Part shown: positions 5,513 to 36,551 of the stretch, piece after piece
How positions within the stretch are numbered: the stretch's first letter is position 1
Layout: the number at the start of each line of letters is the position of its first letter
IMG/VR virus record: IMGVR_UViG_2884152688_000003
Coordinates: 42,301-106,300 of that record
Reading direction: 5' to 3' (one strand)
DNA: 64,000 bases
Source: a virus
Taxonomy: Duplodnaviria > Caudoviricetes
Made by a program: the position numbers and the translations under genes
Notes under the pieces: generated by a model
The model's database searches: none
Told to the model about the DNA's origin: nothing
Seen by the model: only the letters and a program-made list of their open reading frames with translations

Positions 5513-6772
5513 TTGAAGAATAAAAAATTATTTATGCAATGTGACCTTTCCGAGGGGAAGAGTGAAGTAGTAAATGGAAATCTTGTCCCGGTTAAGATTG
5601 CACTAATGCATGATAATGTCAATAAGCATGATTTAAATATAGACCTTGAAGTTATAAAATCAGCTTCAGAATCTATTAAAAATAAACCAATTCTAGCTTA
5701 TATAAGACAGAAGGAAGACGGATCGTATGATTTCGCCGGACATGAATTTAAGCTTCAAGAAGATTATTACAGTGGGGAAATTAAAAGAGAATTTTTTGAA
5801 CACCCTATTGGGTTAATACCAGAGTCAACGGAAATTGACTATGTTGAACATGATGGAAAAACATATATGACTTGCACAGGTTATATATATGAAGGGTATT
5901 CTAATCAAGCGTTAGATATCATTAAAGAAACTGGATCAAAATGTGTGAGTGTTGAAATTGAACATTCAGCGGAAAAACCAAATTCTGAATACTCAGGGGT
6001 TTCAGATATAGAAGCATTTACTTTTTTAGGAGTGACTATACTTTCTGATGAAATTGAACCTGGTATGGATGATAACTGTAGAATATCTTTTTCAAAAGAT
6101 TCAAGCAAATTTGAAAGCTTTATAGCAAATGCAAATAAAGAACTTAGCGAGTTTGAATTGAAAAAGAAAAAAGAGGATGAACATTCCGAAGATGAGGGTG
6201 AGAATGACGATTCTAAAAACGACCCAGATACAACAAATGAACCTGAAGATGAAAATGAGTCTAAGGGTGAAGATGCTGAGCCGGAAGAAGATTTTGCTTG
6301 TAAAAAGAAGAAGAAAAAGACTTATACAAAAGAAGATGTTATGGCTTTAAATGAAGCCTTGTTTACTTGCTATTCTACAGAGATGGATACAAGTATCGAG
6401 ACAATCGAAGATTTAAAGGAAAAAATATTAAATTCTTTCTCTTCTTTGATTAATGAAAACAAAGAACTTTCTGAATACAAAAAGGAAAATGAAAATAAGA
6501 AAAATGCAGAAGCTGTAGGAAACTTGGTTTCAGAATTCCCACTTTCAGAAGACGAAACATCAAGCTTGAAAGAAAAGGCCTTAAATGGTGAGTTAAGTTT
6601 AGAGGACTTAGAGAAAGAACTATATGTTCTTGTAGGAAAGAAAAACTTAAAGAAAAACAGTGAAAAAGAATTTAGTGCAAATGGGATAATGATGCACGAT
6701 TTCAATGAGCCAGAAGAAGAAAATGAAGTCGCACAATATGGGCCTTCATTAAGAAAATATTTAGGATTTTAG
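5513..6772 (+). CDS. Putative prohead protease / scaffold protein
   Basis: Lies between portal and capsid; globular N-domain (VSVEI...FLGVTIL..IEPGM), acidic linker and coiled-coil C-terminus; SD AGGAGGTG. Confidence 0.6.
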   Translation: MKNKKLFMQCDLSEGKSEVVNGNLVPVKIALMHDNVNKHDLNIDLEVIKSASESIKNKPILAYIRQKEDGSYDFAGHEFKLQEDYYSGEIKREFFEHPIGLIPESTEIDYVEHDGKTYMTCTGYIYEGYSNQALDIIKETGSKCVSVEIEHSAEKPNSEYSGVSDIEAFTFLGVTILSDEIEPGMDDNCRISFSKDSSKFESFIANANKELSEFELKKKKEDEHSEDEGENDDSKNDPDTTNEPEDENESKGEDAEPEEDFACKKKKKKTYTKEDVMALNEALFTCYSTEMDTSIETIEDLKEKILNSFSSLINENKELSEYKKENENKKNAEAVGNLVSEFPLSEDETSSLKEKALNGELSLEDLEKELYVLVGKKNLKKNSEKEFSANGIMMHDFNEPEEENEVAQYGPSLRKYLGF

Positions 6773-13672: not shown

Positions 13673-14125
13673 ATGAGAACAATAAAATTAAGTGAACTGC
13701 CTAAGAAGGAAAAATATAGAGATATAATTTCGGTTACTATGGATGACGGTGAAATAGATTATATATACGTTTTGAATCCAACAGGCGAAATAGAAAAAGA
13801 ACTTTTAGAGGTATGCTCTGAGGTTATATTTGAAAAATGTGAACTTGACGATTCTGAATTGATGAAATTATTCATAGAAAAACTTACAAATATAGAAGTT
13901 GAATACGGATTTCAGGAAGTTCCAGAGTCCGATGCTTTAGCAAGAGTATATACTACACTAAAAACTATTTACTTTGAAATGATAGATTTTTGCTACAGAT
14001 TTTATATTTGCGAAGAATCAGCAATGAAGGCAGAAGAAAGTAGAGAAAAATTATTAAAAGAAATCAGTGCGAAAGAAGAAAAAGAAGATAAAGAAATTAT
14101 AAACGCCATAAAAGAAGATAAATAG
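13673..14125 (+). CDS. Hypothetical protein (possible tail assembly chaperone)
   Basis: Acidic 150 aa protein in the tail module; SD AAGGAG. Confidence 0.5.
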   Translation: MRTIKLSELPKKEKYRDIISVTMDDGEIDYIYVLNPTGEIEKELLEVCSEVIFEKCELDDSELMKLFIEKLTNIEVEYGFQEVPESDALARVYTTLKTIYFEMIDFCYRFYICEESAMKAEESREKLLKEISAKEEKEDKEIINAIKEDK

Positions 14126-14140
14126 TTATGAGGTGAAAAT

Positions 14141-16694
14141 ATGGTCTTTGGATCGATTGAAGAGTGTGAAGCTTATATAAAGAGTTGTATGACACAAACA
14201 ACCCCAGTTATGGCACAAAAAACTCAAGAAGAAGGAAAGAACATAATATCCGGACAGGTTGGTGGAATAACAGGAAGTTTGGCAAATTCAGTGTTTATAT
14301 TGGGAACATCAGCAAATTCAATGGAGGTAGGAATAGAGGATAGAGGTGGTGGAAATGATTATTCATGGACATCACAGGTTTATAGAACTCATTTCTTTCC
14401 GATGTACGGATTAGAGAAAGGCCACACATGGAATAGAGGTGCCACAACAATTATAGGTTTTTCAAGCGAGAAAACCCACGATTTTAATCGTGTGGATGAA
14501 AGCTTGTCAAATACACTGTAAGCATATAGAGAAATCTGTATGTAGTGAATACATAAAACTCATGTATTCCAATTAAGAAACTGAATTGCTGGAAATTCGT
14601 AAAGCTAACTTAACTACAACGCAAAGATAATACAAAACTTAAACGTGAATGTGGCGAGAGCAGAAAAAATAAGTTAGATGGCATAAGGTTAAACCCTAAG
14701 TGCTTTAAAATTGAAAATCAGCATCCAAGCCTAGAAATAGGAAGGTTCAACGACTATTCCTCTTGAGGGAAGTACATCACAAGCCATTGGTGATGGAAGT
14801 GGTTTCGCCTTAGCACGTAATGGTGAAGGATAAGATATAGTCTGTGCTTGCACGAAAGTGTAAGAAGTTCATAAGAGAACTGTATAGATAGTAGCGAATC
14901 TATATGAACAAACTTCACACAAAAAAAAGAAAGTATAATAGTTTTAATATTGTGTATAAAACTATTGATTTCGTACACTAAATAGCATATAATAAAATTA
15001 TGAATAATGAATACAGAGACTCAAAAACAACTGTTTCGTTAATCAATTATCATTTTGTTTTTTGTCCAAGATATCGAAGGAAAATATTTGAAGATTCCAA
15101 AGTAGATATTAGATTTAAATCAGTCATTCAAGAAATATGTATTGAGAATGATTGGGATATTATTGCAATAGAGACAGATAAAGAGCATTGCCATTTATTC
15201 ATAAATGTACAACCTATATATTCTCCTTCTGAAATAATGAAGATAATAAAAGGTATTACATCACGAAAATTAAGGCAAGAATTTGAACATTTAAGCAAAA
15301 TGCCAAGTGTTTGGACAAGGTCATTTTTTGTTTCAACTGCTGGTGATGTATCTAGTAAAATAATTAAAAGATATGTTGAAAATCAAAGAACAAGATACTG
15401 ATTATACGTTAAGGAGGTGACAGAAATGAAAAAGGCACATAAGATACGTATTTACCCAAATACTAAACAACAGATACAATTTCAAAAAACATTTGGATGC
15501 GTAAGATTTTACTGGAATTTTATTTTAAACCAAACTCAAACAAATTATAAAATGAAACAAGAAGATGAAATGTATTTAGAAGACAAGACAACATATGCAA
15601 TTCTTAAAAAACAAGAAGAATATTCATGGTTAAAAGAAGTTGAAGCTCAACCATTAAGCCAAGTGACTATGGATTTAAGAAAAGCATACAAAAATACATT
15701 TAAATCTAAGTTTGGGCTCCCTAAATTCAAGAGTAAAAAATACTCTAAAAAATCTTATAGGACAGCAGCTGGAATGAAGGTGAATGAAAACTACTGTTAT
15801 ATATCTAGAGTTGGGTGGGTAAAAATGGCGGAGAAGTTACGATTTAAAGGAAAATTAATGAATGTAACAATCAGTCAATCTAAATCTGGAAAATACTTTG
15901 CAGCATTCTTAGTAGAAACTGAAAATGTTGAACTAGAACCAGTCGAAAATAAAATTGGCTTAGATTTAGGTCTTTCTCATTTCTGTGTAGCTTCCACAGG
16001 AGAAAAAATAGATAACAAAAAATTCTATCATTCTCTTGAAAAGCGACTAATAATTGAACAAAGAAAACTTTCAAAACGTTTAGAGATAGCCAAAAAACAT
16101 AATCGTAAATTAGATGATTGTAAAAACTATCAAAAACAAAAAAAGAAAGTTGCTTTAATACATGAAAAGATATTCAATCAAAGAAATAATTTTTTACATC
16201 AAATTTCTTCAAGAATAACTGATGAAAACCAAGTCATTTGTATAGAAGATTTAAACGTAAAAAACATGATTAAAGATCATAAATTAGCGAAATCAATAGC
16301 CGATGTATCGTGGAGTGAATTCGTAAGACAATTAGAGTACAAGTCTAAATGGAAAGGAAGAAAACTTGTTAAGGTAGATAGATTCTTCCCTAGTTCTCAA
16401 ATTTGTTCTAAATGTGGACACAATGATGGCAAGAAAGAGTTAACCATAAGAGAATGGACTTGTTCTAATTGCAACACGAATCACGATAGAGATATCAATG
16501 CGAGCATAAATATTAAAACCGAAGGACTTTCGGGGTTAGCTTAGTAAATTTACTATCAATAGATGGTATTACCTAAGAACCCCACGATTTTAATCGTGTG
16601 GAGTGTCAGGATTACATGGGAATCATGGGCTTCTGGAAACTTAGATAAGATATTCTTAGAAACAATGAGTGGTCTAGGAGTACCTATAGGATAA
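14141..16694 (+). CDS. HK97 gp10-like tail protein split by IStron-1 (exon 1 14141-14454, exon 2 16610-16694; 132 aa spliced)
   Basis: Joining ...ACAATTAT|GATTACATGG... reads [33 protein letters not shown]-stop in frame; [10 protein letters not shown] motif. Confidence 0.75.
14455..14920 (+). ncRNA. Group I intron ribozyme core of IStron-1
   Basis: P AATTGCTGGAAA 14584, Q AATCAGCATCC 14716, R TTCAACGACTA 14746, S AAGATATAGTC 14832. P1: TTAT|AG pairs with CTGTAA 14516-14521, with U.G at the splice site. Confidence 0.9.
14965..14993 (+). promoter_or_regulatory. SigA-type promoter, probably giving a leaderless tnpA mRNA
   Basis: TTGATT-17nt-TATAAT; the ATG starts 7 nt after the -10 element and has no SD. 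Confidence 0.6.
15000..15401 (+). CDS. tnpA: IS200/IS605 Y1 HUH transposase
   Basis: [14 protein letters not shown] motif [17 protein letters not shown] and catalytic YVENQ. Confidence 0.95.
   Translation: MNNEYRDSKTTVSLINYHFVFCPRYRRKIFEDSKVDIRFKSVIQEICIENDWDIIAIETDKEHCHLFINVQPIYSPSEIMKIIKGITSRKLRQEFEHLSKMPSVWTRSFFVSTAGDVSSKIIKRYVENQRTRY
15417..16544 (+). CDS. tnpB: RNA-guided endonuclease TnpB (canonical RuvC D-E-D, Zn ribbon)
   Basis: KIRIYP...[12 protein letters not shown]; [17 protein letters not shown]; CSKC/CSNC. Confidence 0.95.
16545..16625 (+). ncRNA. Predicted omegaRNA 3' part of IStron-1 (scaffold to 16609, guide from 16610); probably extends into the tnpB 3' end
   Basis: Inferred from known TnpB biology: right end plus about 16 nt of flank. 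Confidence 0.55.
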
Positions 16695-16709
16695 GGAAGG
16701 AGTGATTTT

Positions 16710-18869
16710 TTGGCTGAGTTTAGAATAAAAAGTACATTAGATCTCAGTACAGATGAAGCAAAGAGCAAAATGAAAGCTCTTGAAAATGAAAAGATTAAAG
16801 CTAAATTAGAACTAGATGCCGAAAGTAGTAAGAAAGCCCTTAACAGTTTAGATAAAGCGTCAAAGCAATCTCAACAGAATAGGGTCAAAGATGCAAAGAA
16901 GGCAGAAAATGAATTAGCTGGGATAGATAGAAAAAAGCTAAATGAATATAAAAGATTAGGGCAGGAAAAAGCTTCTTTAAGTAATAAGTTTGCTAAAGCT
17001 GAAAGCGATAATGCTAGAAAGAATTTAGATAAAAATATTAGAGATAGACAACGACAGATGTCTGGACTATACAAACAAATGTCTAGTGAACAGCAAAAAA
17101 TAGCAAAACAGATGGACACTCAAATGTTCGGTGCTAAATCAGGCAATGGCTTACTGAAGGCATTTGGACGAATAGATAAAGATGCTTTAAAGATAAAAAA
17201 TACTATCAGAAGTCTAGATGGGGATATAACTAAAACCTTAGGGAATAAGCTATCTAAACAAATGGATGGATTTTATAAAGGATTAGATAAAAAACCTGTC
17301 AATAACGCTACGTATGAAAACGCTAGAAGGACGATGAATAGTTATCAACAAAGTGCTAAAGCTTTGAAAGAAATTTCCTCTCTAGAAAAATCATATGGAA
17401 GTAGACAAACGGCTGTAAACAATAGACTGGGTGGTTTAAGTAATCTAGTAACGCAAAAAGCTGGGGCTGAACTAAATAAAAATTTAAGCCAATCTTTTTC
17501 ACAAATTAGAGGAAAAGATATAACTTCAACAGCTAGTAAAATGAAAGTTTTTGGAACTGAATTAAACAGGACAGCTACAGCAAGTAAACAATTACAAGGA
17601 TTAGATAAGACAATAAATAGATTGTCTGGATTAGAAAGTGGTTTAAAACCTAAAACTATTAATGGTCTTAGACAAGGGATAGTCGATTTATCTAAATCAC
17701 CTTCATTAGGAACAGCAAGTTTTGATTCCGAATTAAAAAAAGTAAATACGCAAATGACAGTAGCGAGCCGATATCAAGGCCGAATGGCAAAACTTAAAGA
17801 TGATTTTAAGATGTCCATGTTCGGAACCTCAATGGGATATTTGGCTGGCTCTTTTTTACGTTCTCAAGTAACTGGAGCAATCCAAACTTTTAAAGATTTA
17901 GATGCTTCAATGACAGATATAAAGAAGGTAGCAAATCCTAGAGATGTAGCGACAGAATCTCAAACAAAAGCTATTAGAAAACAAGCTATCCAAATAGCGA
18001 AAGATGTTGGGATGGCTTCATCTGATGTCCAATCATCAATAGCTACAGCATTACAATCTGGTATGGGCGGTATGAAAGAGTCTATGGCAGTTGCAAGAAA
18101 ATCTATGATATTAGCTAACGTTGGTGATATGGATAAAGTTGAGGCAACAAAAGCTGTCAATACCATAGTTAAATCTTTCAACTTAGACCCTTTAGGGAAA
18201 CAAAGAGTTAACGTAAAGGGAATGTCAAAAGAAACAACACAATTAGCTAATGCAATGGACTTGCTTAACTATGCAGGTAATAATTATGCTATATCTTCAG
18301 CAGGTGTAGCCGAGGCATTACAGCGTGGTGGTGGAGTTATGAAAGCATATGGAATGAACTTAGCCGATTCTGTTGCAATGATTACAGCCACAAATGAACC
18401 AATACAGAATCCAGAAAAAGTTGGTAATGGTTTAAAATCTATTGCTATTAATATGGCTGGTATTACAACCAGTGCCAAAGATGGGACACTCCATGCGAAT
18501 AAAACAGCTAAGGCACTTCAAGAAATTGCTGGCGTTGATATATATAAAGATAAGGCAAAAGGATCTCTTAAATCCCAAGTTGAACTTTTAGATGAAGTTC
18601 AGAAAAAATGGGGTGGATTAAACGATGCTCAAAGAGCCGGTCTATCTGAGTCTATAGCAGGTAAACATAGAGCGGATATATTCCAAGCTTTAATGGGGAA
18701 TTACGAAACATTTAAGAAACTTCGTAATGAGTTTAGCCAAGGAGACCACTTTGGTTCAGCTGAAGCCGAAAACGAAAAATATGTAAACTCATTAGCTGGT
18801 AAGACAAACAAGCTAAAAGAGACCATGACTTCCATAGGAACTGGTCTTATAAATGGGAAGGCTGTTTAT
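16710..18869 (+). CDS. Tape measure protein, exon 1
   Basis: TP901-like core (LDASMTDIKKVA, MDLLNYAGNNYAISS, VGNGLKSI, IAGKHRADIFQALM); ends at TTAT 18866-18869. Confidence 0.9.
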
Positions 18870-19360
18870 TAGGAACGTAGTGATATAAACGAGAATCCTC
18901 GTGATTTTAATCATGAGATGAATCGTAAAATAGATACGTAAATAGTAAGCATATAGAGAAATCTGTATGTAGAGGTGAGAGAAATTCATCCAATACTACT
19001 TGAATTGCTGGAAACCCCTAAAGCTAGTAAAACTACAACATAGAGATGAAATATACTCAAGTGTGAATGTTGCGAAAGCAGAAAAAAATTACTAGATAAC
19101 ATAAGGTTAAATCCTAAGTGTTCTACAATAATGGGCAATCAGCAGGTAAGCTCCGAATAGGAGAAACTTCAACGACTATTCCTCTTGAGGGAAGTACACA
19201 CAAGCGTGTGGAAGTGGGTAGACCTTAACACGTAATGGTGAAGGATAAGATATAGTCTGTGCTTGCACGAAAGTGTAAGAAGTTCATAAGAGAACTGTAT
19301 AGATAGTAGCGAATCTATATGAACGAGACCTCAAAAATGATAAAGTACAAGGTTCAAGGC
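18870..19360 (+). ncRNA. Group I intron ribozyme core of IStron-2
   Basis: P 19003, Q AATCAGCAGG 19137, R 19168, S 19247. P1: TTAT|TA pairs with TAGTAA 18943-18948. 19229-19324 is identical to 14814-14909. Confidence 0.9.
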
Positions 19361-19442
19361 ATTAGTCCAGAAAACTTTTACAAAAATATGGGCTTATTCA
19401 GTAAAATGCGGTACAATTGCCTTATAGAAAAGAGGTGAGAAA

Positions 19443-20693
19443 ATGTATTTAACTGTAAAGCAACAAGTAAAACAATTATCTAAGGAAGACTATAAAAATA
19501 TAAGAGAACTATCTCATGTAGCTAAAAACTTAGCAAATGAAGCTATATATAATATTCGTCAGTATTATTTTCAAGAAGGAGAATATTTGAACTACGAAAA
19601 AAATTATGTATTACTAAAAGATAGTGAAAACTATAAAAAACTAAATTCTAATATGGCACAACAAATATTAAAAGAAGTAGATGGTTCTTTTAAGTCCTTT
19701 TTCAGTCTTATTAAATTAGCTAAGAAAGGAAAGTATTCATTTAGAAATATTAAATTGCCAAAATATCTTCCAAAAGATGGATTTACGACACTTATTATAG
19801 GATTTGTTAGATTAAAGGGAAATCTTTTAACTATACCATATTCTAATCAATTTAAAAAAGAACATTCAACTGTTACTATAAAAATCCCACAAATTCTTTT
19901 AGATAAAAAGATAAAGGAGATAAGAATTATACCTAAAGCTAAAGCTAGGTTCTTTGAGATTCAATATACTTATGAAGTTGAGAAAGAACAAAGAAATTTA
20001 GACAAAAACAAAGCACTAGCAATAGATTTAGGAATTAATAATTTAGCTACTTGTGTGGTATCAACAGGTGAATCCTTCATAGTTGATGGGAGAAGGTTAA
20101 AATCTATAAATCAAGGATATAATAAGCAAAATGCAATATTACAAAGCATTAAAGATAATCAAAAATATGGGAAAAGACCTACAAATAGACAATATAGAAT
20201 TGCTGAAAAAAGAAATAATAAAGTCAATGATTATATGTCTAAAACAGCAAGGATAATAATTAATTATTGCCTTAAAAATAATATTGGAAAAATAGTTTGT
20301 GGGTATAATGAAACATTTCAAAGAAACAGTAAACTTGGCAGAATAAACAATCAAAACTTTACAAATATACCATTTGGTAAACTAAGAGAAAAGTTGGAGT
20401 ATCTATGTGAATTATATGGTATAGAGTTTAAAAAACAAGAAGAAAGTTATACTTCTAAAGCAAGTTTCTTTGATAATGATGAAATCCCAACATATAACAA
20501 TGATAATCCAAAAGAATATGTATTCTCTGGCAAAAGAGTAAAAAGAGGATTGTATAAAACAAAAAAAGGATTAATCTTAAATGCAGATGTAAATGGAGCG
20601 TTAAACATATTAAAGAAAAGTAACGTTGTACCCTTAGAAGGGTTATACACTAGAGGCGAACTGGACACGCCAATACGTATCAAAGTAGTTTAA
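19443..20693 (+). CDS. tnpB: TnpB, Zn-finger-less type with rearranged RuvC-II
   Basis: AIDLGINNLA; IVCGYN at the usual RuvC-II E position; QEESYTSK; NADVNGALNI; no CxxC pairs. Confidence 0.9.
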   Translation: MYLTVKQQVKQLSKEDYKNIRELSHVAKNLANEAIYNIRQYYFQEGEYLNYEKNYVLLKDSENYKKLNSNMAQQILKEVDGSFKSFFSLIKLAKKGKYSFRNIKLPKYLPKDGFTTLIIGFVRLKGNLLTIPYSNQFKKEHSTVTIKIPQILLDKKIKEIRIIPKAKARFFEIQYTYEVEKEQRNLDKNKALAIDLGINNLATCVVSTGESFIVDGRRLKSINQGYNKQNAILQSIKDNQKYGKRPTNRQYRIAEKRNNKVNDYMSKTARIIINYCLKNNIGKIVCGYNETFQRNSKLGRINNQNFTNIPFGKLREKLEYLCELYGIEFKKQEESYTSKASFFDNDEIPTYNNDNPKEYVFSGKRVKRGLYKTKKGLILNADVNGALNILKKSNVVPLEGLYTRGELDTPIRIKVV

Positions 20694-20780
20694 GCTATGG
20701 AGAACGTAAATAGGTTTAATTAATAAACCTTAGAACCCTGTGATTTTAATCATAGGAGGTTCAGGGTGGGTTAGATGCTC
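20694..20780 (+). ncRNA. Predicted omegaRNA 3' part of IStron-2 (guide from 20765)
   Basis: Hairpins AGGTTTA/TAAACCT and the right-end stem between the tnpB stop and TCAG; inferred from TnpB biology. Confidence 0.55.
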
Positions 20781-23700
20781 TTAATGCTTTTGCTGGAGGT
20801 TTAGATAAATTAGTAGGTTTTGCAGAAAAATATAATCTTCAACTACCTGTTATGGCATCAGGGCTAGGGATGTTAAAAAGTTCATTTAATGGGTTTAAGA
20901 CACCTATAAAAACGTGGGAAGAATTACTTGGGAACGATACTCCTAAGAAACATTCTAAAGCTACAAACAAACCGAAAATAACAGCAGATTCTTTCTCTAA
21001 ACCTAGAGATATAAAAGAACAAACAAATGCAGTAAATACATTGACTAAAGCTAATGATAAAAATACTCAATCTATAAGATCTAATGTCAAGGCAAGTGAA
21101 AGAACACCAGAACAAGCAAAAGCTGTTAGAAAAGAATTAGCATCTCAATTTAAGACTGTTGATTCATTAGGTAAAGCAAAAGAGAAAGATTTAGATATAA
21201 CTAAAAAAGGGATTTCAGCTAATATTAAGGCAGCCGAAAGTGCTAAACAACACAGAAAAGGGATATCTGGACAAGTCCAAGAACTTAAGTCTTTAAATAA
21301 AGTTAGTTCACAATCGTCCAAAATAGGTATAGGAGATAAAATCAGTGGAGTAACAAAAGGAATAGGTGGGGTAGCTAAAAATCTATTATCTGGTGTTGGA
21401 GGAATGTTAGCAACAGGTGCTTTATATGGTGGAGCTACTTTAGCTATATCTAAAGGATTAGAATATGGGTATAAAGGATACCAAAAGTTAACTAATGGTG
21501 TGAACATGTCTAGGCAAGCCCACATAGATAGAAGAAATGCCTTAGTAGGTGAGAACAAAGCTATTTCTTCAAATATAAACTTTTTACAAAACAATAAAAA
21601 AGAATATGATTCTTTAAGAAATAAACAAAAGCAGTTATCAAACACGCCATATGAGAATATGTCAGAATCGCAAAAGGCTGATATGGACAAATTAAAGGCA
21701 TATAATGAAAAAATTGCCGATATGTTCCCTAATATGGTTAAAGGTTATGATAAAGATGGAAACCCAATTGTGTCCATGAGTGCTAACGCAGATGGTCTGA
21801 TTAAAAGACTAAAAGTGGCACAAGAGTCAAAAGAAAGATTAATAAAACAAGAAAATCAAAGCATAGCAGACAAGAACTTAACTGAAATGACTAGGGGCGA
21901 GTCTATAGGTGATAGCATAATCGGTCGCATAAACAATAAAAACAAAAGCGTTTCAGATTATTACAAAAATCTAGCAAAACAAAGCATGAAAGATTATGCT
22001 TTTACAGATATGTCTAAGTTTTTACCAAAAAACAAAACACACAGCGATGCTTTGTTAGGTGATGATTCTTGGAAAAAAAGACAGGCAAAATGGAAAGAGG
22101 GCTACAATAGTTACAAAAAAGAAGTAGACAAAACCTATGGGGAACTAGCTAATGACATAGCTAAATATGACAAAGCTAACGCCCATAATGCATCAGTAGG
22201 GCAACAAAGCTTACTCGATTCTGGGAGATTTAAAAACTTAAAAAATTCTGCAAAAGAAGCAATCTCCGAAATGGGCTCTATGCTTACATGGGGTAAAATA
22301 AGCACGACAGATGGTGTAAGCTTTTTAAATAAATTAGGAGAAAATGCCGACCCGTCAAAAATACAAAATTGGACAAAACAATTAAATAAATTAAACGAAG
22401 CGTATAAGATGGATAAAGATAGGCAAACTTATCAGGCTGGCATAAAGAGCTTGGCTGATGAAATGGCTAAATCTACAAACGGAAGAGCAAAAGACTATAT
22501 CAAAATGCTTGAAGATGTTGATAGGGGATACGCTAATTTAGAAGAAAAAAGAACCGCAGATTATATGAAGAAGAAAGGTACTAAGTTTAGTGACTTAATG
22601 GAAGGTGGATCTAAAGGATCTTATGCTGACAAAGTTCAACAAGAAATAAGGGACATAATGTCAGCTGAACAACTTCTTATGAATGCAAGAACAACCGCCC
22701 AAAAGAAAAATGCTTTAAGTGAAATTGCTTCATATGATGGTTTAGGTTCTGGCGTTCAAAATTGGGCAAAAGCACTAAGTAATCAAAATGGTATTTCAGA
22801 TGCTAGTATGTCCGCTTTCTCTAAGGTGCTAGGAGCGATAGAGAATTATGACCCTAAAAATAAAAATGCCGCAAAAGACCTAAGTAATATAAAGAAAGCA
22901 CTTAATACTGGTGATATAAAAAATGGAATGAGTATCGCTGACGTACTCTCTCTCACTAAGGACGAATTAGAAGCGATAAGGAATATTGACCCTAATGGAA
23001 ATGCCGGTAATATATTTGAAAAAATGTTAACGGGTGGAGAACAGCTTAAAAATAGCTTGAAAAATGTTCAAGATTTTTATTCTAAAGGTGATAATAAGAT
23101 TGAACTAGAGGCTGAGGTTGCATTAAAGATAGCGGATGCTAACTTAAATACAAAGGAACTTGAAGGTCTAGAAAAAGCTGTCCAAAAAATAGAAGATAGT
23201 AAAAAGAATATGTTTCGAGGTGAAGGAGCAAAATATTTTTCAGGAACAAATGGGGATGTGAATAAGGCATATGAGAATATGTCTAAGACTGATGAGGGTG
23301 TTAAGTTTGCTATCCGCTCTGGTGCAAGTGAAGAAGTTAATAAGTATCGTGAGGGGGTTTCACGTTTAAGCGATAGCTATAACCAACTTAATAGTGAAAT
23401 GAAAAAAAGCATAGATTCTTTAAGTGGAAAGGAATTTAGTTCATATTTAGATACTTTTTCTAAACTTGACGATAAAATGAAATCGTTTGTAAAGAATAAT
23501 AATATAGTTTCAGAAAGTGGTATCAAGGCTGCAAGTGGTCTTTATGATATTGGTAAAAGTACCGGTCTTTCAGATATTCAATCTGAAACAATGGTAAAAG
23601 TAGTGATAAGTACAGTGGGGGAAGAAGGGGCGTCTAGAGTTAAATCATATTTAGACAGTTTGCCAGCTGAAAAAAGAGTAAATGTAACAGCACAGCTAAG

Positions 23701-26700
23701 TGGTGAAAATGGTGAAGGATTCGCACAAGGGTATGACGCTTTAATGCAACATTTCAATGGTGACACTAAACTTGTCCAAAAAGTAGCTTTTGAATTAGAA
23801 AATCAAGGACAAGGGGATCTTATTTCACAACTGAGACCGGACAATTTAAAGGAAACTTTAAAGGTAAAAGCTGAGATAGATATAGATAATATGGATGGTT
23901 TTTCGGGAAAAGAACTTCCTCCAAAAAAACAAAGAGTAGAGATTGAAGAAAGCGAAACAAGTGGTTCAAAAGAATTACCACCAAAGAAACAGAAGGTTAC
24001 ACCCGAAATTGCAACAGACGCTTTAAATGGTGGATTTGCAGGACTAAACGCTCACTTGCCACCTATTAAACAAAAGGTAGAAATTGAACAACCAGCACCA
24101 CCAGCTCCAATTGAGGCTGCACCATACATATTCCAAAAACCAGTAATTCCTCAACCAGACCCACCTCAAGTCGGGCCTATAGCGGCACCACAAGTTGAAA
24201 CGCCAGTTACACCTGAACCAACTCTGCCGGCAATGCCAGCTTTACCGGCGCCACAAATGCAGGCACCTACAATGCCAGTACCAATTATGCCAGTCTTACC
24301 TGTGTTCCCCGCTCCGATAGTAGGAACACCAATCATTCCAAAACCTACATTACCTAGTATGGGGACAATACCTGCACCAAAAATAGGTATGCCAACTGTG
24401 CCTAAACCATCTTTACCAAAGATGGATACTATAGCTGCACCAAAGGTTAATACACCTAAGGTTCCAGCACCAACAATGCCTAAAGTCGAACCAATAAAAA
24501 TAAGTATTCCTTCGGTAAAAGTCCCAGATGTAAAAGGGCAATTAGCTAAGATACCTAAAAGCACAACGGCTACAGTTAGGGTAATAGACAATGCATCGGG
24601 GCCGGCAAGAGCAGCTGCGGGTGCTGTTAGATCATTCCCTACTGGAACAAGAGTAGCGACATTAATTACAAAATATGTAACTCAAGGTTCACCAGGTGGT
24701 GGTGGAGGGAAAGGTGGAGGAAAGTCTCTTGATATTAAAAGAGATGAAATAGACTCTAAATTAGAAAAACTTAAAAAGTTAAAGAACTCTAATTATTTCA
24801 ATCTTAAAGATCTTTCCATCTTTAGAAAAAAGAATACTCAACTTAATCCTCTAGCAACAGCACCAGTAATGGGAGCAGTAGCAACAAGTGATGGTTCTAT
24901 GTCTACACCAATTGGTGGTTATATAGGTGGAACAGCTTCACCTATGGATGAAGACATCGTGTCTTTAGTTAATGAATTCAAGAATAGAACTCTCAAAGGA
25001 TTTGACTATAAAGGAATTACAGCTTTAGATAGACTGAGTTATTCCTTAAAGGAAATACAATTTGGATTAAAAGAAGATATTAATCTTCTTCATGAAATGG
25101 AAAGAGCAGTTAATAGAGTAAATAATTCTATTAAAAGAATAGACTTAAATATGCAAAGAGCTCGTGGCTCTGAAAAAGTGTCTATGCTTTTCCTTCAGAA
25201 CGACCAAATAAGAGAATCAATAAGACGTTCTCAAGCACATCGAGCGGCATTAGTAGTAGAAAGAGATGCATATAGAAATATGTTGAGGACTGAAGGGTTC
25301 AAATTTACACCAGACGGAACTCTGACAGCAAACTATTACGCTCAAATGGCTAAATATAAAGAGCGTGATTTAGCTATCGAAAAAGAATTAGAGAAGTTAA
25401 AAGATGGCAAAGGCGCTGATAGCAAGAGAAAGAAACTTGAAGAAGAAAAGAAAGAAATTGAAAGAAAAAGAAAAACACTTGATGAATACGAGAAAACAGT
25501 AGATAAAATTGTTGATGTGGATTATGGAATTAAAGAACATGAAGTGAAGATAGATAATAATGTTGATGAGGTTGAAAAATTAAGGATTTCTGCATGGAAA
25601 GAAAATTATGAGGCCGCAACAAAAATTATGGATTCTGCTATAAAAGCAATAAATAATTCACTAGATATATATTCTATTAAGTTTAAATATGCTTTTGGTA
25701 TGGATAGATTAAATATCTTAGACGCACAAACATCCAAATATAGAGAGATGAATACAGTTATCGAAAGTAATATTAATACCTTAAATAACTTAAAATCAAA
25801 TCTACAAGGACGTTTAGAAAAACATGGGTTTACTTTTAATGGAGATAACATCTCAAATTATCAGACACACATGGCACAGCTTAAAGATACTTCCACTCTA
25901 TATGAAGATATTAAAAGTTTAGCATCTCAATATTTCGACATTGTTGAAAGCAAAATTCCAGATTATAATAAGAAAATGGAAGAAATGAACCAAAAGGTTA
26001 AAGACAATGCGAAACAAAAGCTTGAAGACACTAAAACGATAGAAGATAAAATTACTAGCATGTTAAAGAAACAGGCTGATGAAAGAATAAAAGCTATCGA
26101 GAAGGAAAGTAAAGCTAGAGAAGATGCTATAAAGAAAAAGAAAGATGAATATAATGAGGCTAGAAAAGAAGCTGATTATCAAGATGATTACCAAAAGAAA
26201 TTAAAGGAAATTGAAAAACTTGAGAAAAAGCGTGATATATATACAAAAGATACTAGCCAAAAAGGGCAAAAAGAACTTCAAAAAATAAATGAAGAACTAG
26301 AAAAGAAAGTAGAAGAACTTCAGAAAAGCGTTGAAAAACACGTGGATGATAAAGTAAATAAGATATATGATGATGAGTCTAAAAGATTAGCTGATGAATT
26401 GAAAGAACTTAAAGAAAAAAGAGATGAGGAATATACTGACGCTGAATTATTGAAAAAAGCTCAAGAGGCTATACAATCGGGGCAATTTACTGATTGGGAT
26501 GGTAATGTGAAAGATCTTCAAACAGCGTTGATAGATTATATGAATGAGTTTGAAGGCGGATTATCAGCAACAGGAGCTTTAATTCAAGCAGAACTAATCG
26601 CCAAATTAAAGGTGGCTAATGATACAATAGCAAGTTTTAAGGAAAATCTCGACATACTTGGAGTAGGTGATTATAATTTAGGTGGTTACATACAGCATTC

Positions 26701-26875
26701 TAAATATAATGAGTTAGAAGATAGAAGAAAAGAATCTACCAACAACATTACCTATAACAAGTCTTTAGTAGAAATCCAAGGCAATGTAGATACTGGAACA
26801 TATGAGAAGATACTTGCTGAAGTTCAAAAATATATAAAACAGCACGAAAGAGATTTAAGAAGCAATATAAGATAA
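20765..26875 (+). CDS. Tape measure protein, exon 2 (spliced product 2756 aa)
   Basis: The frame is open from 20765 and in phase with ATG20852; long coiled coil, hydrophobic Gly-rich segment and Pro-rich block. Confidence 0.88.
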   Translation, partial: GGLDALNAFAGGLDKLVGFAEKYNLQLPVMASGLGMLKSSFNGFKTPIKTWEELLGNDTPKKHSKATNKPKITADSFSKPRDIKEQTNAVNTLTKANDKNTQSIRSNVKASERTPEQAKAVRKELASQFKTVDSLGKAKEKDLDITKKGISANIKAAESAKQHRKGISGQVQELKSLNKVSSQSSKIGIGDKISGVTKGIGGVAKNLLSGVGGMLATGALYGGATLAISKGLEYGYKGYQKLTNGVNMSRQAHIDRRNALVGENKAISSNINFLQNNKKEYDSLRNKQKQLSNTPYENMSESQKADMDKLKAYNEKIADMFPNMVKGYDKDGNPIVSMSANADGLIKRLKVAQESKERLIKQENQSIADKNLTEMTRGESIGDSIIGRINNKNKSVSDYYKNLAKQSMKDYAFTDMSKFLPKNKTHSDALLGDDSWKKRQAKWKEGYNSYKKEVDKTYGELANDIAKYDKANAHNASVGQQSLLDSGRFKNLKNSAKEAISEMGSMLTWGKISTTDGVSFLNKLGENADPSKIQNWTKQLNKLNEAYKMDKDRQTYQAGIKSLADEMAKSTNGRAKDYIKMLEDVDRGYANLEEKRTADYMKKKGTKFSDLMEGGSKGSYADKVQQEIRDIMSAEQLLMNARTTAQKKNALSEIASYDGLGSGVQNWAKALSNQNGISDASMSAFSKVLGAIENYDPKNKNAAKDLSNIKKALNTGDIKNGMSIADVLSLTKDELEAIRNIDPNGNAGNIFEKMLTGGEQLKNSLKNVQDFYSKGDNKIELEAEVALKIADANLNTKELEGLEKAVQKIEDSKKNMFRGEGAKYFSGTNGDVNKAYENMSKTDEGVKFAIRSGASEEVNKYREGVSRLSDSYNQLNSEMKKSIDSLSGKEFSSYLDTFSKLDDKMKSFVKNNNIVSESGIKAASGLYDIGKSTGLSDIQSETMVKVVISTVGEEGASRVKSYLDSLPAEKRVNVTAQLSGENGEGFAQGYDALMQHFNGDTKLVQKVAFELENQGQGDLISQLRPDNLKETLKVKAEIDIDNMDGFSGKELPPKKQRVEIEESETSGSKELPPKKQKVTPEIATDALNGGFAGLNAHLPPIKQKVEIEQPAPPAPIEAAPYIFQKPVIPQPDPPQVGPIAAPQVETPVTPEPTLPAMPALPAPQMQAPTMPVPIMPVLPVFPAPIVGTPIIPKPTLPSMGTIPAPKIGMPTVPKPSLPKMDTIAAPKVNTPKVPAPTMPKVEPIKISIPSVKVPDVKGQLAKIPKSTTATVRVIDNASGPARAAAGAVRSFPTGTRVATLITKYVTQGSPGGGGGKGGGKSLDIKRDEIDSKLEKLKKLKNSNYFNLKDLSIFRKKNTQLNPLATAPVMGAVATSDGSMSTPIGGYIGGTASPMDEDIVSLVNEFKNRTLKGFDYKGITALDRLSYSLKEIQFGLKEDINLLHEMERAVNRVNNSIKRIDLNMQRARGSEKVSMLFLQNDQIRESIRRSQAHRAALVVERDAYRNMLRTEGFKFTPDGTLTANYYAQMAKYKERDLAIEKELEKLKDGKGADSKRKKLEEEKKEIERKRKTLDEYEKTVDKIVDVDYGIKEHEVKIDNNVDEVEKLRISAWKENYEAATKIMDSAIKAINNSLDIYSIKFKYAFGMDRLNILDAQTSKYREMNTVIESNINTLNNLKSNLQGRLEKHGFTFNGDNISNYQTHMAQLKDTSTLYEDIKSLASQYFDIVESKIPDYNKKMEEMNQKVKDNAKQKLEDTKTIEDKITSMLKKQADERIKAIEKESKAREDAIKKKKDEYNEARKEADYQDDYQKKLKEIEKLEKKRDIYTKDTSQKGQKELQKINEELEKKVEELQKSVEKHVDDKVNKIYDDESKRLADELKELKEKRDEEYTDAELLKKAQEAIQSGQFTDWDGNVKDLQTALIDYMNEFEGGLSATGALIQAELIAKLKVANDTIASFKENLDILGVGDYNLGGYIQHSKYNELEDRRKESTNNITYNKSLVEIQGNVDTGTYEKILAEVQKYIKQHERDLRSNIR

Positions 26876-30598: not shown

Positions 30599-33280
30599 AT
30601 GACAGAAAGTATTAATAAAGACTACCCCCTAATAATTGACTTGCTTAAAAGTGATGATAGAGGATTAAACAAGGGGATTATGTTTAATGAATCTGATAAA
30701 AATACAGCTTTCGTAAATGCACAAATAGTTAGGGATGAAGTTCCTGTTAACTTGGTCGGTGCAATTATATACCTAAATGTAGACAAGCCAAATAGAACAA
30801 AATTACAGGTAGAAGTAGAGATAGAGAATCCAGAGGAGGGGAAGGTTAAACTTCCCTTTTCAGAAAATACTTTGAATTTTGCTGGACTTGCGTCATTTCA
30901 ACTTCAGATTGAAGTAGGAGATAAGACATCAATAACACCAAAATATTATTTCACAATAGAAACTGGGAATATAACTGATGAAGATATTATGGATAGTAAC
31001 GAATACCCTATACTTACGAAAGAAAGAGAACGAGTAGAGCAAGCTTTAAATAACTCAAAAATTGCTATGGAACGTGCTGACAACTTATTATTAACTCAAA
31101 TTGAAGCTAATAATAAAATGAATAACGCAGAATTAATTAGAAAAGAAAACGAGTTAAAAAGAAGGAATGCTGAAACTCAAAGAGGTGTTGAGTTTGAGGA
31201 TATGAAAATAACTATTTCTCAAGAATTGGCATCCATAGAGAAGATAGTCGAACAAGCTACTGAGTTAAAAAAAGTAGCACTAAGAAACGAATTAAATAAA
31301 GACTTTGAAGAAAAATTTAATGAAACACAGATTTTATTTGACGGAATAACTAATAAAAAGGTGCTTGAACTCAAAGAATATTCCGATTCTCAAATTGAAC
31401 CAGTTAAAAATGAAATTAGAGAAAAACTAAAGACAATACCACCAGTAGAAGAATTAAAAGGTAGAGATGGAACTTCTATAACATTAAAAGGAAAAGTAGA
31501 CAATATAGATGAACTTCCGACTTTAGAGAAATCTTCTTTGGGGGACATATATGTTGTTGGTGAAACCTTATATATGAACAATATAACCGAGTGGGTTGAT
31601 ATAGGAGGATTTAGAGCGGGGCCTCAAGGTCTAAGAGGTGAACCGGGCAAAGATGGTGTCAATGGTAAAGATGGGGTAGATGGCAAAGACGGAATTGATG
31701 GTAAAGATGGATATTCTATTTATGTAAAAGGAACTTTAACAAGTGAGGAAAATCTTCCTTCTATTGACGATAGTAGAAACGGTGATATGTATGTTATAAA
31801 TGGAGAATTATATTTATTTACCGGTGAAAATAGTTGGTCTAATTTAGGTAAATTTGTTGGGCCTCAAGGTCTAAGAGGTGAACCGGGCAAAGATGGTGTC
31901 AATGGTAAAGATGGGGTAGATGGCAAAGACGGATTGACTCAAGATTTAACCCCAATTACAACAAGAATGGACGAAATAGAACAAAAGGTAGAAGAAAATA
32001 AAATAGAAATAGAAATCGTAGACAACTTAACTACTGGGGGTTCTAATAAAGTTCTTTCAGCAGAACAAGGTAAAGTTTTGTTCGCGCAAGTCTCCGATAT
32101 AGAAGAAAGGACAGGGGTTGTAAATAACTTAGAAGATGGTGGAATAGACAAACCACTATCCGCTGAAATGGGTAAACAACTTTTTCAATCTGTCAGTGAT
32201 GGTAAGACAAAGATAGCTAGTGCAATCACTGACAAAGGGATAAGCACTAGCCCTACAGATACTTTTGATGTAATGAGTGGAAATATAAAAGATATAAAAA
32301 CTGGGTATGGCGTGGGGGATGTATTAGAGTTGGATTCTGTAGATTTTGAATATAAATTGGACTATTCACCAGAATTTTTACATAAAATACAATTCAGTGG
32401 GAATAGTGTTTCAAGTCTATCACTTGATGTAAAGGATAGCGTGTTATACCTTTATTCAAACCCTCACATTACATATTATAATTTGACTGAAAATGGATTG
32501 ATTCAAAAGTCTGCTGATGTAACAAAAAATGAACATACCCGTATTATTCCATGTCCATCTAATAAAACCATTTATGCTACAACAATAGGGGGAAAACCTT
32601 TGGTTACTTCATATGACTATTCTTTTAATAAAAAATATACTTATGAAGGCGAACTTCTATATAACTCTTGGATTAGAGGTATGGCTATTTCTGATGAAGA
32701 TAAAATTGATATATATGTAACAAACTATACTCCTGATTCTGGCAAACTTATTTCCTTGTCAGAATATTTAATTAAAAATTGGGAATTAGATTTAAATGGA
32801 GCAAGAGACGTAACAGTTCTCAATAAAGACACTATAATATTTTCAAATTCATCTGTGATAAAGTCTGTAAATAGTAAAGGTGTATTGAAAAAGAGTCTGG
32901 AGACTTTAGGTGCTATTCAATTATTTTCTGATAAAGATAATGGTTATATAAATGGATATAATGACAAAAAGATATTTCAGTTAAACACCAACTTAGAAAT
33001 TATTTGGGAAAAAACATTAGAAAATGAAATCCTTAGTTCTTATTATAATTCTGAAGAAAAAGTATATATTATCTTATCTAAAGCAAAAGGGGGGTATTTA
33101 TCAGTAATAGATGGATTTAATGAATATGGTGAAAATGTTTTTAATGTAGAAAGTCAGGCATTTTATGATGAAAATCAAAAAATATTTTCTATAGAAAATA
33201 TCATTCTACATACAGGGTCAAACAAAGGTATAGTTTATACGATTAAGAACCCAAAAATTAATAGAATAAAAATAAAATAA
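30599..33280 (+). CDS. BppU-like baseplate / tail fibre protein with collagen repeats and C-terminal beta-propeller-like domain
   Basis: BppU-type N-domain, two GPQGLRGEPGKDG collagen blocks and DNL..GG..K.LSAE.GK.L fibre repeats. Confidence 0.75.
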   Translation: MTESINKDYPLIIDLLKSDDRGLNKGIMFNESDKNTAFVNAQIVRDEVPVNLVGAIIYLNVDKPNRTKLQVEVEIENPEEGKVKLPFSENTLNFAGLASFQLQIEVGDKTSITPKYYFTIETGNITDEDIMDSNEYPILTKERERVEQALNNSKIAMERADNLLLTQIEANNKMNNAELIRKENELKRRNAETQRGVEFEDMKITISQELASIEKIVEQATELKKVALRNELNKDFEEKFNETQILFDGITNKKVLELKEYSDSQIEPVKNEIREKLKTIPPVEELKGRDGTSITLKGKVDNIDELPTLEKSSLGDIYVVGETLYMNNITEWVDIGGFRAGPQGLRGEPGKDGVNGKDGVDGKDGIDGKDGYSIYVKGTLTSEENLPSIDDSRNGDMYVINGELYLFTGENSWSNLGKFVGPQGLRGEPGKDGVNGKDGVDGKDGLTQDLTPITTRMDEIEQKVEENKIEIEIVDNLTTGGSNKVLSAEQGKVLFAQVSDIEERTGVVNNLEDGGIDKPLSAEMGKQLFQSVSDGKTKIASAITDKGISTSPTDTFDVMSGNIKDIKTGYGVGDVLELDSVDFEYKLDYSPEFLHKIQFSGNSVSSLSLDVKDSVLYLYSNPHITYYNLTENGLIQKSADVTKNEHTRIIPCPSNKTIYATTIGGKPLVTSYDYSFNKKYTYEGELLYNSWIRGMAISDEDKIDIYVTNYTPDSGKLISLSEYLIKNWELDLNGARDVTVLNKDTIIFSNSSVIKSVNSKGVLKKSLETLGAIQLFSDKDNGYINGYNDKKIFQLNTNLEIIWEKTLENEILSSYYNSEEKVYIILSKAKGGYLSVIDGFNEYGENVFNVESQAFYDENQKIFSIENIILHTGSNKGIVYTIKNPKINRIKIK
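31619..31933 (+). repeat. 75-bp perfect direct repeat (31619-31693 and 31859-31933) encoding a collagen block
   Basis: Identical sequence at an offset of 240 nt. Confidence 0.9.
32173..32280 (+). repeat. 108-bp direct repeat, copy 1 (copy 2 at 35483-35590)
   Basis: TAAACAACTTTTTCAATC...GTAATGAGTGG is identical in two fibre genes. Confidence 0.9.
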
Positions 33281-35354: not shown

Positions 35355-36551
35355 ATGAAAATTTTATCTGAAATAAAAAATGAAGATTTAGATAAAAAAA
35401 TTAATGGTAAAATCGATAAAAAAGATGTTATACAAGATATTTCAATCGGTGGAATAGATAAAGTTATATCCGCTGAAGCTGCTAAACAACTTTTTCAATC
35501 TGTCAGTGATGGTAAGACAAAGATAGCTAGTGCAATCACTGACAAAGGGATAAGCACTAGCCCTACAGATACTTTTGATGTAATGAGTGGGAATATAAAG
35601 GATATAAAAACTGGCTATGGTGTTGGGGATATTGTTTTACCAAAAAATATAAAAGAAATACAAGAATATACACCAAATAATACTATATGGAAAACAGGTC
35701 GAATTGATTGGGGTTTGAGCATAGTCGTTGATAAAGAAACGGATGTTTACCTTGGCGGGACACAAGGTATAATTTACAAACTTGACAAATATGGGAAAAA
35801 AATGTGGGAATATAAAGGACACACCGATTGGATATATTCATTGGTTATAGACAACCAAGCTAATATCTACAGTGGATCTAAAGATACAACAGTTCACAAA
35901 GTAGACAAAAATGGAAATTGTATATGGAAATATATAGAGGGAATATCATATATCGAAGATTTAACTGTAGATGGAGATAATAATATTTATATCGCTGACC
36001 ATGGTAGGGTGTTACATAAAATCAATAAGGATGGAAAAAAGATATGGCAATATAAAGGCTATAATATAAGATTGTCTGCTGTAACGGTAGACTTAGAATT
36101 TAATGTATATTGCGGAGGAGCCTCTTATGGAGTTCACAAACTTGATAAAAATGGAAACAAGATATGGGCATATGTTCCTGATTCAACAAATGTTGTAACA
36201 CTGATTGTTGACGAAGAATCCAATATATATATTGGATATGAAAGTGGGAATGTTCATAAAATAGATAAAGAAGGGAACAAAATATGGGAATATGCCGAAC
36301 ATCGTAAAAAAATATCCTCATTAGCTATAGATAGTCGATCTAATATCTATAGTGGATCTGAAGACACAACGGTTCATAAAATAGATAAGAGTGGGAAAAA
36401 AATTTGGAGATACACTGATTATAACAGTAAAGTACTTAGCATTTGTGTGGATTCAAATAATGAAATTTACTGTTGTGGAAATGGTTATACCGTTCATAAG
36501 TTTTCTAATGGGGAAAGTTATGAAACTACAGGGTATAAAATTCTAAATTAA
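35355..36551 (+). CDS. Second fibre / receptor-binding protein with PQQ/WD40-like beta-propeller
   Basis: About 40-aa repeats (VHKIDK.G.KIW.Y...I.SL.ID...NIYSG); shares its adaptor segment with the 30599 gene. Confidence 0.7.
   Translation: MKILSEIKNEDLDKKINGKIDKKDVIQDISIGGIDKVISAEAAKQLFQSVSDGKTKIASAITDKGISTSPTDTFDVMSGNIKDIKTGYGVGDIVLPKNIKEIQEYTPNNTIWKTGRIDWGLSIVVDKETDVYLGGTQGIIYKLDKYGKKMWEYKGHTDWIYSLVIDNQANIYSGSKDTTVHKVDKNGNCIWKYIEGISYIEDLTVDGDNNIYIADHGRVLHKINKDGKKIWQYKGYNIRLSAVTVDLEFNVYCGGASYGVHKLDKNGNKIWAYVPDSTNVVTLIVDEESNIYIGYESGNVHKIDKEGNKIWEYAEHRKKISSLAIDSRSNIYSGSEDTTVHKIDKSGKKIWRYTDYNSKVLSICVDSNNEIYCCGNGYTVHKFSNGESYETTGYKILN
35483..35590 (+). repeat. 108-bp direct repeat, copy 2
   Basis: Identical to 32173-32280. 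Confidence 0.9.

Follow-up and report, generated by a model that had tools for sequence, protein, structure and literature searches.

We analyzed a 64,000-nucleotide (nt) stretch of the IMG/VR virus record IMGVR_UViG_2884152688_000003 (Duplodnaviria; Caudoviricetes; positions 42,301 to 106,300 of that record), hereafter called the window, focusing on its tape measure gene, which codes for the tail ruler and is interrupted by an IStron, a fusion of a group I ribozyme with an insertion sequence (IS). We refer to this element as IStron-2 (ISt2) and to a related one, located 4.4 kb upstream, as IStron-1 (ISt1). The tape measure gene and both elements lie on the given (+) strand, and positions are those of the window.

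The tape measure region consists of three co-oriented open reading frames (ORFs) at 16710-18872 (720 aa), 19443-20693 (416 aa) and 20852-26875 (2007 aa). The first corresponds to tape measure exon 1 (16710-18869), which comprises 720 codons from a TTG start to the final codons GCT GTT TAT; homologues align with it from residue 1, and its product carries a PhageMin_Tail domain (PF10145, aa 423-651, E 3e-23). No Pfam family matched the 2007-aa ORF, whose frame extends open back to 20765, giving an exon 2 (20765-26875) of 2036 codons plus stop. A first-pass annotation of this DNA had proposed that both ORFs belong to one gene, joined by removal of 18870-20764. Upon recomputation, this deletion indeed joins GTT TAT to GGT GGG in frame and yields 2756 codons plus stop. 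The peptide encoded across the predicted joint, AVYGGLDALNAFAGGLDK, is the one the annotation had given, and the stop codon that it expected to end translation of unspliced RNA at once is found in the sequence as TAG at 18870-18872, the first codon of the intron.

Further support came from a homologue search limited to longer proteins, which returned 390 relatives, the best 120 of which (1276-3454 aa) were analyzed. Both halves were matched by 116 of these 120 proteins, and a 130-residue window over the joint was covered by one ungapped BLASTP alignment in 115 of the 116. In 18 of the 20 best homologues, the regions matching exon 1 and exon 2 meet at adjacent residues without any offset, and glycine, the first residue of exon 2, is present in 20 of the 21 homologues displayed. 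The 29 codons preceding the first ATG (20765-20851) align with the homologues as conserved protein, and we therefore place the start of exon 2 at 20765 and not at 20852. These comparisons confirm the prediction that the ORFs at 16710-18872 and 20852-26875 constitute a single 2756-codon tape measure gene.

Ends and ribozyme of IStron-2

The insertion, ISt2, spans 18870-20764 (1895 nt), begins with TAG and ends with GGTTCAG. For its classification we used the sequence traits of group A (IS200/IS605-type) IStrons given in PMC4227781 (here and throughout, published work is cited for the parts of each paper that were available to us). These elements are inserted after TTGAT, ATTAT or TTTAT, end with TCAG, carry subterminal palindromes and have their IS200/IS605 component 3' of a group IA2 intron. 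ISt2 lies directly 3' of TTTAT (GCTGTTTAT/TAGG at 18869/18870) and ends at 20764 with GGAGGTTCAG, and thus with TCAG; GGAGGTTCAG is also the common 3' end of ISt2 and its relatives L012, L013 and L014. The ribozyme is located on the 5' side, 75 nt inside the left end, and the IS200/IS605 gene on the 3' side is a tnpB without tnpA. Subterminal hairpins are found at 18898-18917 (CTCGTGAT-TTTA-ATCATGAG), with counterparts in ISt1, L011, L012, L014 and L019-L022, and at 20737-20756 (CCTGTGAT-TTTA-ATCATAGG), followed by AGGTTCAG and with G20764 as the last intron base; the palindromes at both ends are homologous to those of ISt1 and of CdISt1-type copies. The right-end stem in the last 34 nt of ISt2 (-12.2 kcal/mol) falls among the other IStrons folded (-10.3 to -14.7 kcal/mol) and is no more stable than the CdISt1-type stems (-11.0 and -12.7 kcal/mol). 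Together with the ribozyme match described below and the tnpB gene, these traits bear out the first-pass view of the insert as a TnpB-carrying IStron and confirm, for every sequence trait of the published group, its predicted membership in group A.

The ribozyme core (P2 to P9) at 18945-19279 matches the full RF00028 model (positions 1-253) with 69.5 bits (E 4.9e-17), the Rfam gathering score being 50. Its identity with the IStron found in Clostridioides phage ES-S-0173-01 (L011) is 84.5% across 414 nt, and the core aligns to three other IStron ribozymes without large deletions. Based on its similarity to CdISt1-type and Twort-like phage introns and on the literature, we label it group IA2-like.

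The 5' strand of the predicted P1 helix (18864-18871) consists of the last six exon bases, GTTTAT, and the first two intron bases, TA, which places the 5' splice site after 18869. Its 3' strand is the internal guide sequence UA-GUAA-GC at 18943-18950, directly 5' of P2. Here, GUAA (18945-18948) pairs with the exon end UUAU, so that U18869 and G18945 form a U-G wobble at the cut; exon positions -1 to -6 pair with GUAAGC, and intron positions +1 and +2 with the UA 5' of the guide. The exon-terminal U paired to a guide G and the terminal intron G (G20764) are as expected for a group I intron. Guide and target covary among nine independently bounded IStrons: GUAA is found in all four tabulated elements inserted after TTTAT or ATTAT (ISt2, ISt1, L012, L014), and GUCA in all five inserted after TTGAT (L011, L019-L022). 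A similar covariation links the first intron bases to those lying 5' of the guide (UA/UA in ISt2, AG/CU in ISt1, GAU/AUU in L012).

Splice sites at TTTAT/...CAG/GGT are favoured over a shift by one base, because the latter predicts cysteine at the position where 20 of 21 homologues have glycine. The shifted sites (TTTATT/...CAGG/) would allow a 7-bp pairing with GAUGAAU; they also fail for ISt1, and it is the GUAA/GUCA guide beside P2 that covaries with the target. Using the next G after G20764 as the intron end would disrupt the frame, and an alternative guide, AUAAAC at 18886-18891, has no counterpart in other IStrons.

We also searched for an uninterrupted site. The genome's own contigs hold no empty-site sequence for either IStron. 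A 23-nt exon-2 pattern had no match in viral contigs, a 19-nt exon-1 pattern had 12 metagenome matches, all with unrelated flanks, and none of 72 matches of an exon-1 tail pattern in genome contigs represented a relative. As these searches returned no IStron-free allele of a near-identical phage, the boundaries rest on the end motifs, P1 and protein homologues, which reach at most 68% identity in the vicinity of the insertion. In a genome of the same genus, a tape measure segment with 72% identity is uninterrupted at this position and lacks TTTAT.

TnpB and a candidate guide RNA

The tnpB gene of ISt2 (19443-20693) encodes a 416-aa protein, TnpB2, with matches to PF01385 (E 1.2e-29) and PF07282 (E 1.7e-10). 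It is full length compared to its family, and the 119 relatives listed, of 7999 scored hits, share 74-82% identity with it and come from several Firmicute genera. No close relatives of TnpB2 appeared in phage records, where identity reached at most 40% (32 records). The ISt1 TnpB is unrelated (27% identity over 89 aa). Among 100 family members examined for conservation of the RuvC Asp-Glu-Asp triad and nearby residues, D195 is aspartate in 98 and D382 in all; G287 is invariant where the RuvC-II glutamate is expected, and E333 and E334 are invariant as well. A profile comparison with the ISt1 TnpB reached 40% probability, too weak to map the catalytic glutamate, and a PDB sequence search gave nothing at 1e-5 and a weak match to 8j3r (3.2e-4). 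The family resembles the 'rearranged RuvC-II' TnpB clades of PMC10691335. An intron-less IS that ends with TTCAC (L017, probably also L016) carries a TnpB of this lineage too.

The last ~200 nt of ISt2 are conserved among ISt2-like elements, and RNAalifold predicted 31 base pairs in their 3' region, 10 of them with compensatory changes. One stem, formed by ACCC (20630-20633) and GGGT (20640-20643), shows compensatory changes at all four pairs while lying inside the coding end of tnpB. A structured 3' scaffold, as associated with canonical TnpB, was found on six sequences. This conserved structure, annotated at 20560-20764 with an approximate 5' limit, overlaps the 3' end of tnpB and fits a guide RNA (omega RNA) scaffold that would also overlap the 3' splice site. 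By analogy with the IS605/IS607 mechanism (PMC10690162), the predicted guide and target correspond to the first ~16-20 nt of exon 2 (20765-20784). Neither 20-nt predicted guide of the two IStrons has another match in the genome at up to three mismatches, and the sole other 16-nt guide match, at two mismatches, is not accompanied by a TTTAT motif. A promoter scan of 14000-21200 yielded 33 sites compared to 30.0 +/- 5.6 in shuffled sequences; because this count is near the shuffled expectation, we do not claim an internal tnpB promoter.

Splicing of the tape measure transcript and its alternatives

What can be observed directly at this locus is the anatomy of the element, its boundaries, the conservation of the ribozyme, the covariation in P1 and the conserved 3' RNA structure. 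With a probability of roughly 80%, we interpret ISt2 as a selfish group A IStron that splices out in RNA and thereby restores the 2756-residue tape measure protein. At roughly 1.5 Å per residue, a protein of this length would correspond to a tail of about 400 nm. According to this proposal, an IA2-like ribozyme fused to an IS200/IS605-type IS with tnpB only would have inserted 3' of TTTAT. The exon end GUUUAU of the late transcript would pair with the guide GUAA(GC), with the U-G wobble at the cut; the ribozyme would cut after U18869 and ligate this end to G20765, just past the terminal G20764, to give the RNA for the 2756-residue protein. Ribosomes on unspliced RNA would be halted by TAG as the first intron codon. 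A part of the transcripts would instead provide guide RNA, composed of the scaffold at the tnpB 3' end, the right end of the element and about 16-20 nt of exon 2. TnpB loaded with this guide would cut IStron-free sites bearing TTTAT and a guide match, so that the element is retained or spread.

Several points weigh against this interpretation. We infer splicing, TnpB activity, guide RNA formation and homing alike from sequence. P1 is short, with four certain base pairs, and the count of six takes two bases from P2. The start of exon 2, GGUGGG, remained unpaired with the bases 5' of GUAA when a P10 helix was sought by eye. P10 is not obligatory in every group I intron. When the entire 64-kb window was scanned with Rfam (at the gathering score and at E <= 0.001), the group I introns were missed, and only scans of at most 2.2 kb detected them, with ISt1 and ISt2 scoring 63-70 bits when 0.8-2.2 kb were scanned. 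A near-identical phage with an IStron-free allele did not turn up in the searches described above. On the side of TnpB2, the usual region of the RuvC-II glutamate reads GYN(E/V), with glutamate at E290 in 65 and valine in 27 of 100 family members, and there is no C4 zinc finger between RuvC-II and RuvC-III, as TnpB2 has no CxxC and a single cysteine in its last 100 residues. TnpB2 is non-canonical, and its nuclease activity is our assumption; the guide RNA alignment comprises six sequences. As a separate observation, the ribozyme of L011 was likewise missed by Rfam in a 65-kb batch.

Some of these points could be taken to mean that the ribozyme is inactive, the tape measure gene broken and the replicon plasmid-like or a defective phage. 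Splicing is read here from DNA and not from RNA, P1 is short, and we found no near-identical relative that would show spread of the phage. We nevertheless consider a dead insertion quite improbable. The ribozyme scores well above the Rfam threshold, exon 2 has stayed open for 2036 codons in DNA of 30-36% G+C, tnpB and both ends of ISt2 are intact, and the second IStron in an adjoining gene is equally intact. The replicon as a whole also argues against decay. The contig ends show an exact terminal overlap of 127 nt, which indicates a circular molecule of 106,173 bp, either a large phage or a phage-plasmid. Its late module is full (terminase, portal, tail, fibres and endolysin), as are the lysis and replication modules. 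The replicon's own replication genes code for Pol III alpha, a DnaB-like helicase, NrdD, an ATP-dependent ligase and RtcB, and it further encodes a C5 DNA methylase as well as two tyrosine recombinases. A closed circle with late and replication modules and every module present argues against a decayed prophage.

Assuming that ISt2 does splice, the first-pass annotation had gone one step further and suggested a regulatory switch, in which maturation of TnpB and its guide competes with splicing, so that production of full-length tape measure protein would depend on the TnpB level, which would thereby gate virion output. Part of its premise holds for IS607-type elements. For the CboIStron, splicing and guide RNA function were reported to be mutually exclusive for each transcript, TnpB supplied in trans reduced splicing in single-construct assays, and two native IStrons of C. 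senegalense spliced to 80% and about 2%, respectively (PMC10690162). In ISt2, the guide-RNA-like scaffold is conserved and overlaps the 3' splice site. However, the part of the claim that concerns an effect of TnpB on splicing is contradicted by a pooled study, in which splicing was equal with and without dead TnpB and which concluded that RNA structure, independent of TnpB, is decisive by itself (PMC13521648), and the switch experiments in these papers all concern IS607-type and none IS605-type elements. The sequence of ISt2 itself contains nothing regulatory. IStrons and group I introns in general tend to open with an in-frame stop codon (PMC4227781), and the one seen here is no sign of regulation. 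IStrons furthermore occupy many unrelated genes (PMC4227781), a distribution more in keeping with a selfish element than with a dedicated regulator. Only a few copies of the tape measure protein are needed per virion, so that partial splicing may suffice. Taken together, we regard a switch as improbable and retain the reading of ISt2 as a selfish, splicing IStron.

IStron-1, related elements and known systems

ISt1 (14455-16609) follows ATTAT, ends with GTCAG and contains both tnpA (15000-15401) and tnpB (15417-16544). Its ribozyme at 14518-14864 matches RF00028 with 63.3 bits, its tnpA encodes an intact Y1 transposase (PF01797 Y1_Tnp, E 1e-37), and its TnpB is ISDra2-like, matching the 8h1j and 8exa chains (ISDra2 TnpB) with E values of about 1e-70. 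ISt1 interrupts the gene that immediately precedes the tape measure gene (14141-14454 and 16610-16694, phrog_11057). The reading frame of this host gene stays open for 22 codons of the intron and ends at a TAA overlapping the guide GUAA; removal of ISt1 gives an in-frame joint (AATTAT/GATTAC) that is supported by one homologue, in locus L008 (IMG/VR UViG_3300012991_000413). Judged by its gene content, ISt1 is an autonomous element (tnpA and tnpB), predicted to restore the frame of its host gene as ISt2 does. Both IStrons have common hairpin cores (GATTTTAATC), T-rich targets ending with TTAT and TCAG ends, and they are the sole two copies in the 2.15-Mb genome. Their ribozymes are 96% identical over 116 nt (14794-14909 versus 19209-19324) compared to about 79-80% elsewhere. 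This near-identical segment, within otherwise diverged elements with unrelated tnpB genes, suggests exchange between ISt1 and ISt2 by gene conversion.

The L008 counterpart of the gene that ISt1 interrupts (4018-4437) contains three TGA codons in frame, of which two align with tryptophan. With code 11 the longest open frame of the locus measures 1358 aa, with code 4 it measures 2106 aa, and TGA may be a sense codon in this phage.

The full Y1 transposase of ISt1, together with the hairpin cores, TTAT-ending targets and TCAG ends common to both elements, would also allow the tape measure gene to be restored mainly at the DNA level, in part of the population, with TnpA of ISt1 excising ISt2 from single-stranded DNA during replication and splicing playing a minor role. 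Precise excision that mimics splicing has been seen for a C. senegalense IStron (PMC10690162). However, the assembly contains no empty-site form of either IStron, although an assembly represents the majority form only and would leave room for rare excision. TnpB would be expected to recut empty sites, and the conserved ribozyme argues for splicing being under selection. We judge excision as the main route to be very improbable and prefer splicing in RNA.

A tentative and rather doubtful extension of the splicing model is that the two IStrons act as an RNA-guided gene drive carried by the phage. Guided TnpB2 would cleave those tape measure alleles of co-infecting or resident sibling phages that lack the IStron and present TTTAT followed by the first 16-20 nt of exon 2, and the cut alleles would be converted by repair from the IStron copy or be disadvantaged, as is the case with intron homing endonucleases in phage competition. 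ISt1 would supply TnpA in trans and move the tnpA-less ISt2 during phage replication, which is rich in single strands, and the near-identical 116-nt ribozyme segment, despite unrelated tnpB genes, would be a trace of exchange between both elements.

Relatives of the host gene carry further insertions. In seven of eight IMG/VR loci, the tape measure gene is interrupted at different positions by between one and three insertions that lack ORFs and contain stop codons. Such insertions, in L004-L010 (IMG/VR) and L047-L050 (genomes), measure about 270-640 nt and lie near positions corresponding to residues 520, 570 and 650 of the tape measure protein studied here. One of them (L009, 6045-6295) is a group I intron according to RF00028 (103.7 bits), and another in the same locus (5701-5938) reaches only 16.5 bits. 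None of the eight IMG/VR loci has a tnpB within 6 kb. Within this phage lineage, the tape measure gene looks like a hot spot for introns.

Among 301 genomes of the order, 39 (including the present one) match the element, most of them with the ribozyme only or tnpB only. Of the ISt2-like relatives, L012 is located near the 3' end of an ORF, L013 lacks the 5' part and L015 has a degenerate 3' end; the flanks of these three provided nothing informative on phage genes. A further ISt2-like element, L014 (1301-2871, on the G108 chromosome), has kept the left end, P1/P2 and tnpB; 75 nt separate regions that are 351 nt apart in ISt2, and its ribozyme core has seemingly been deleted.

The closest published systems are the CdISt1 group A IStrons of Clostridioides difficile and relatives (PMC4227781), which share with ISt2 the 5' IA2-type ribozyme, the 3' IS200/IS605 component, a target of the TTGAT/ATTAT/TTTAT class, the TCAG end, two subterminal hairpins and an opening in-frame stop codon. 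Splicing of CdISt1 is reported in literature cited by that paper. The ISt2 ribozyme is 84-86% identical to those of CdISt1-type copies. In contrast to them, ISt2 resides in a phage tape measure gene, combines TTTAT with GUAA instead of TTGAT with GUCA, and carries a tnpB of another clade without zinc finger, unrelated to the ISDra2-like TnpB of CdISt1-type elements and ISt1. The IStron of Clostridioides phage ES-S-0173-01 (CP067352.1, 57215-69625) resembles ISt2 in being a group A element that splits an essential phage gene. It is CdISt1-like, follows TTGAT, ends with GGTTCAG and carries an ISDra2-like tnpB whose product is 44% identical to the ISt1 TnpB. No published account of it came to our notice. 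In this unannotated record, the host gene is terminase-large-subunit-like, with the TerL ATPase half upstream and a weak (nuclease-like) Terminase_6C match downstream. ISt2 differs from it in its host gene, tape measure and not terminase-like, and in its tnpB, which is not ISDra2-like.

IStrons in large clostridial phages are also represented by the group B (IS607-type) elements CbISt3 and CbISt4 of the Clostridium botulinum phages c-st and D-1873 (PMC4227781), to which the ISt2 ribozyme is 73.4% identical over about 340 nt. These have a serine transposase, GG-ending targets, a CGG 3' end and splicing after G (PMC4227781), whereas ISt2 belongs to the Y1 transposase type and shows the canonical U-G pair at the 5' splice site. 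The TMP-IVS1, -2 and -3 introns of Bacillus cereus-group prophages are self-splicing group I (IA2/IA1) introns in the tape measure gene, so that the tail ruler depends on splicing there as it would with ISt2; unlike ISt2, they are described as carrying no transposon or TnpB, most being ORF-less and one having a homing endonuclease (PMC2504315). The mechanistic model is provided by the CboIStron and CseIStron (Zedaveinyte et al., preprint PMC10690162; NAR 2026, PMC13521648), where splice sites and transposon ends coincide, guide RNA and 3' splice site overlap, and a transcript is either spliced or matured into guide RNA. These were IS607-type elements of bacterial genes tested in E. coli, in contrast to the IS605-type ISt2 in a phage gene.

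Group I introns in tape measure genes have been described since 2008 (PMC2504315, Tourasse and Kolsto) and IStrons in phages since 2014 (PMC4227781, Tourasse et al.). Our full-text search found no published IStron in a tape measure gene; the supplementary host-gene list of PMC4227781, which lay outside this search, may hold tail-gene insertions. The locus would provide a clear natural case of an essential phage structural gene dependent on an IS605-type IStron, next to published mechanistic work on IS607-type IStrons in bacterial genes (PMC10690162, PMC13521648). The IStron pair with one autonomous member and the non-canonical TnpB are of particular interest. Since ISt1 and ISt2 combine closely related ribozymes with unrelated TnpBs in the same phage, the locus offers a compact system for asking whether a co-resident tnpA-bearing IStron mobilises a tnpA-less one in trans, whether ribozyme modules are swapped between elements, and whether a TnpB lacking a zinc finger functions when its guide RNA overlaps a 3' splice site. 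In annotation, split tape measure ORFs of large Firmicute phages merit a check for introns, which Rfam scans of whole windows can miss.

Two further repeat regions were noted in the window. A tail fibre gene contains collagen-like Gly-X-Y repeats at 31619-31933, where a 75-nt unit recurs exactly 240 nt apart, and the gene of a beta-propeller-like protein contains six repeats with a 120-nt period at 35772-36412.

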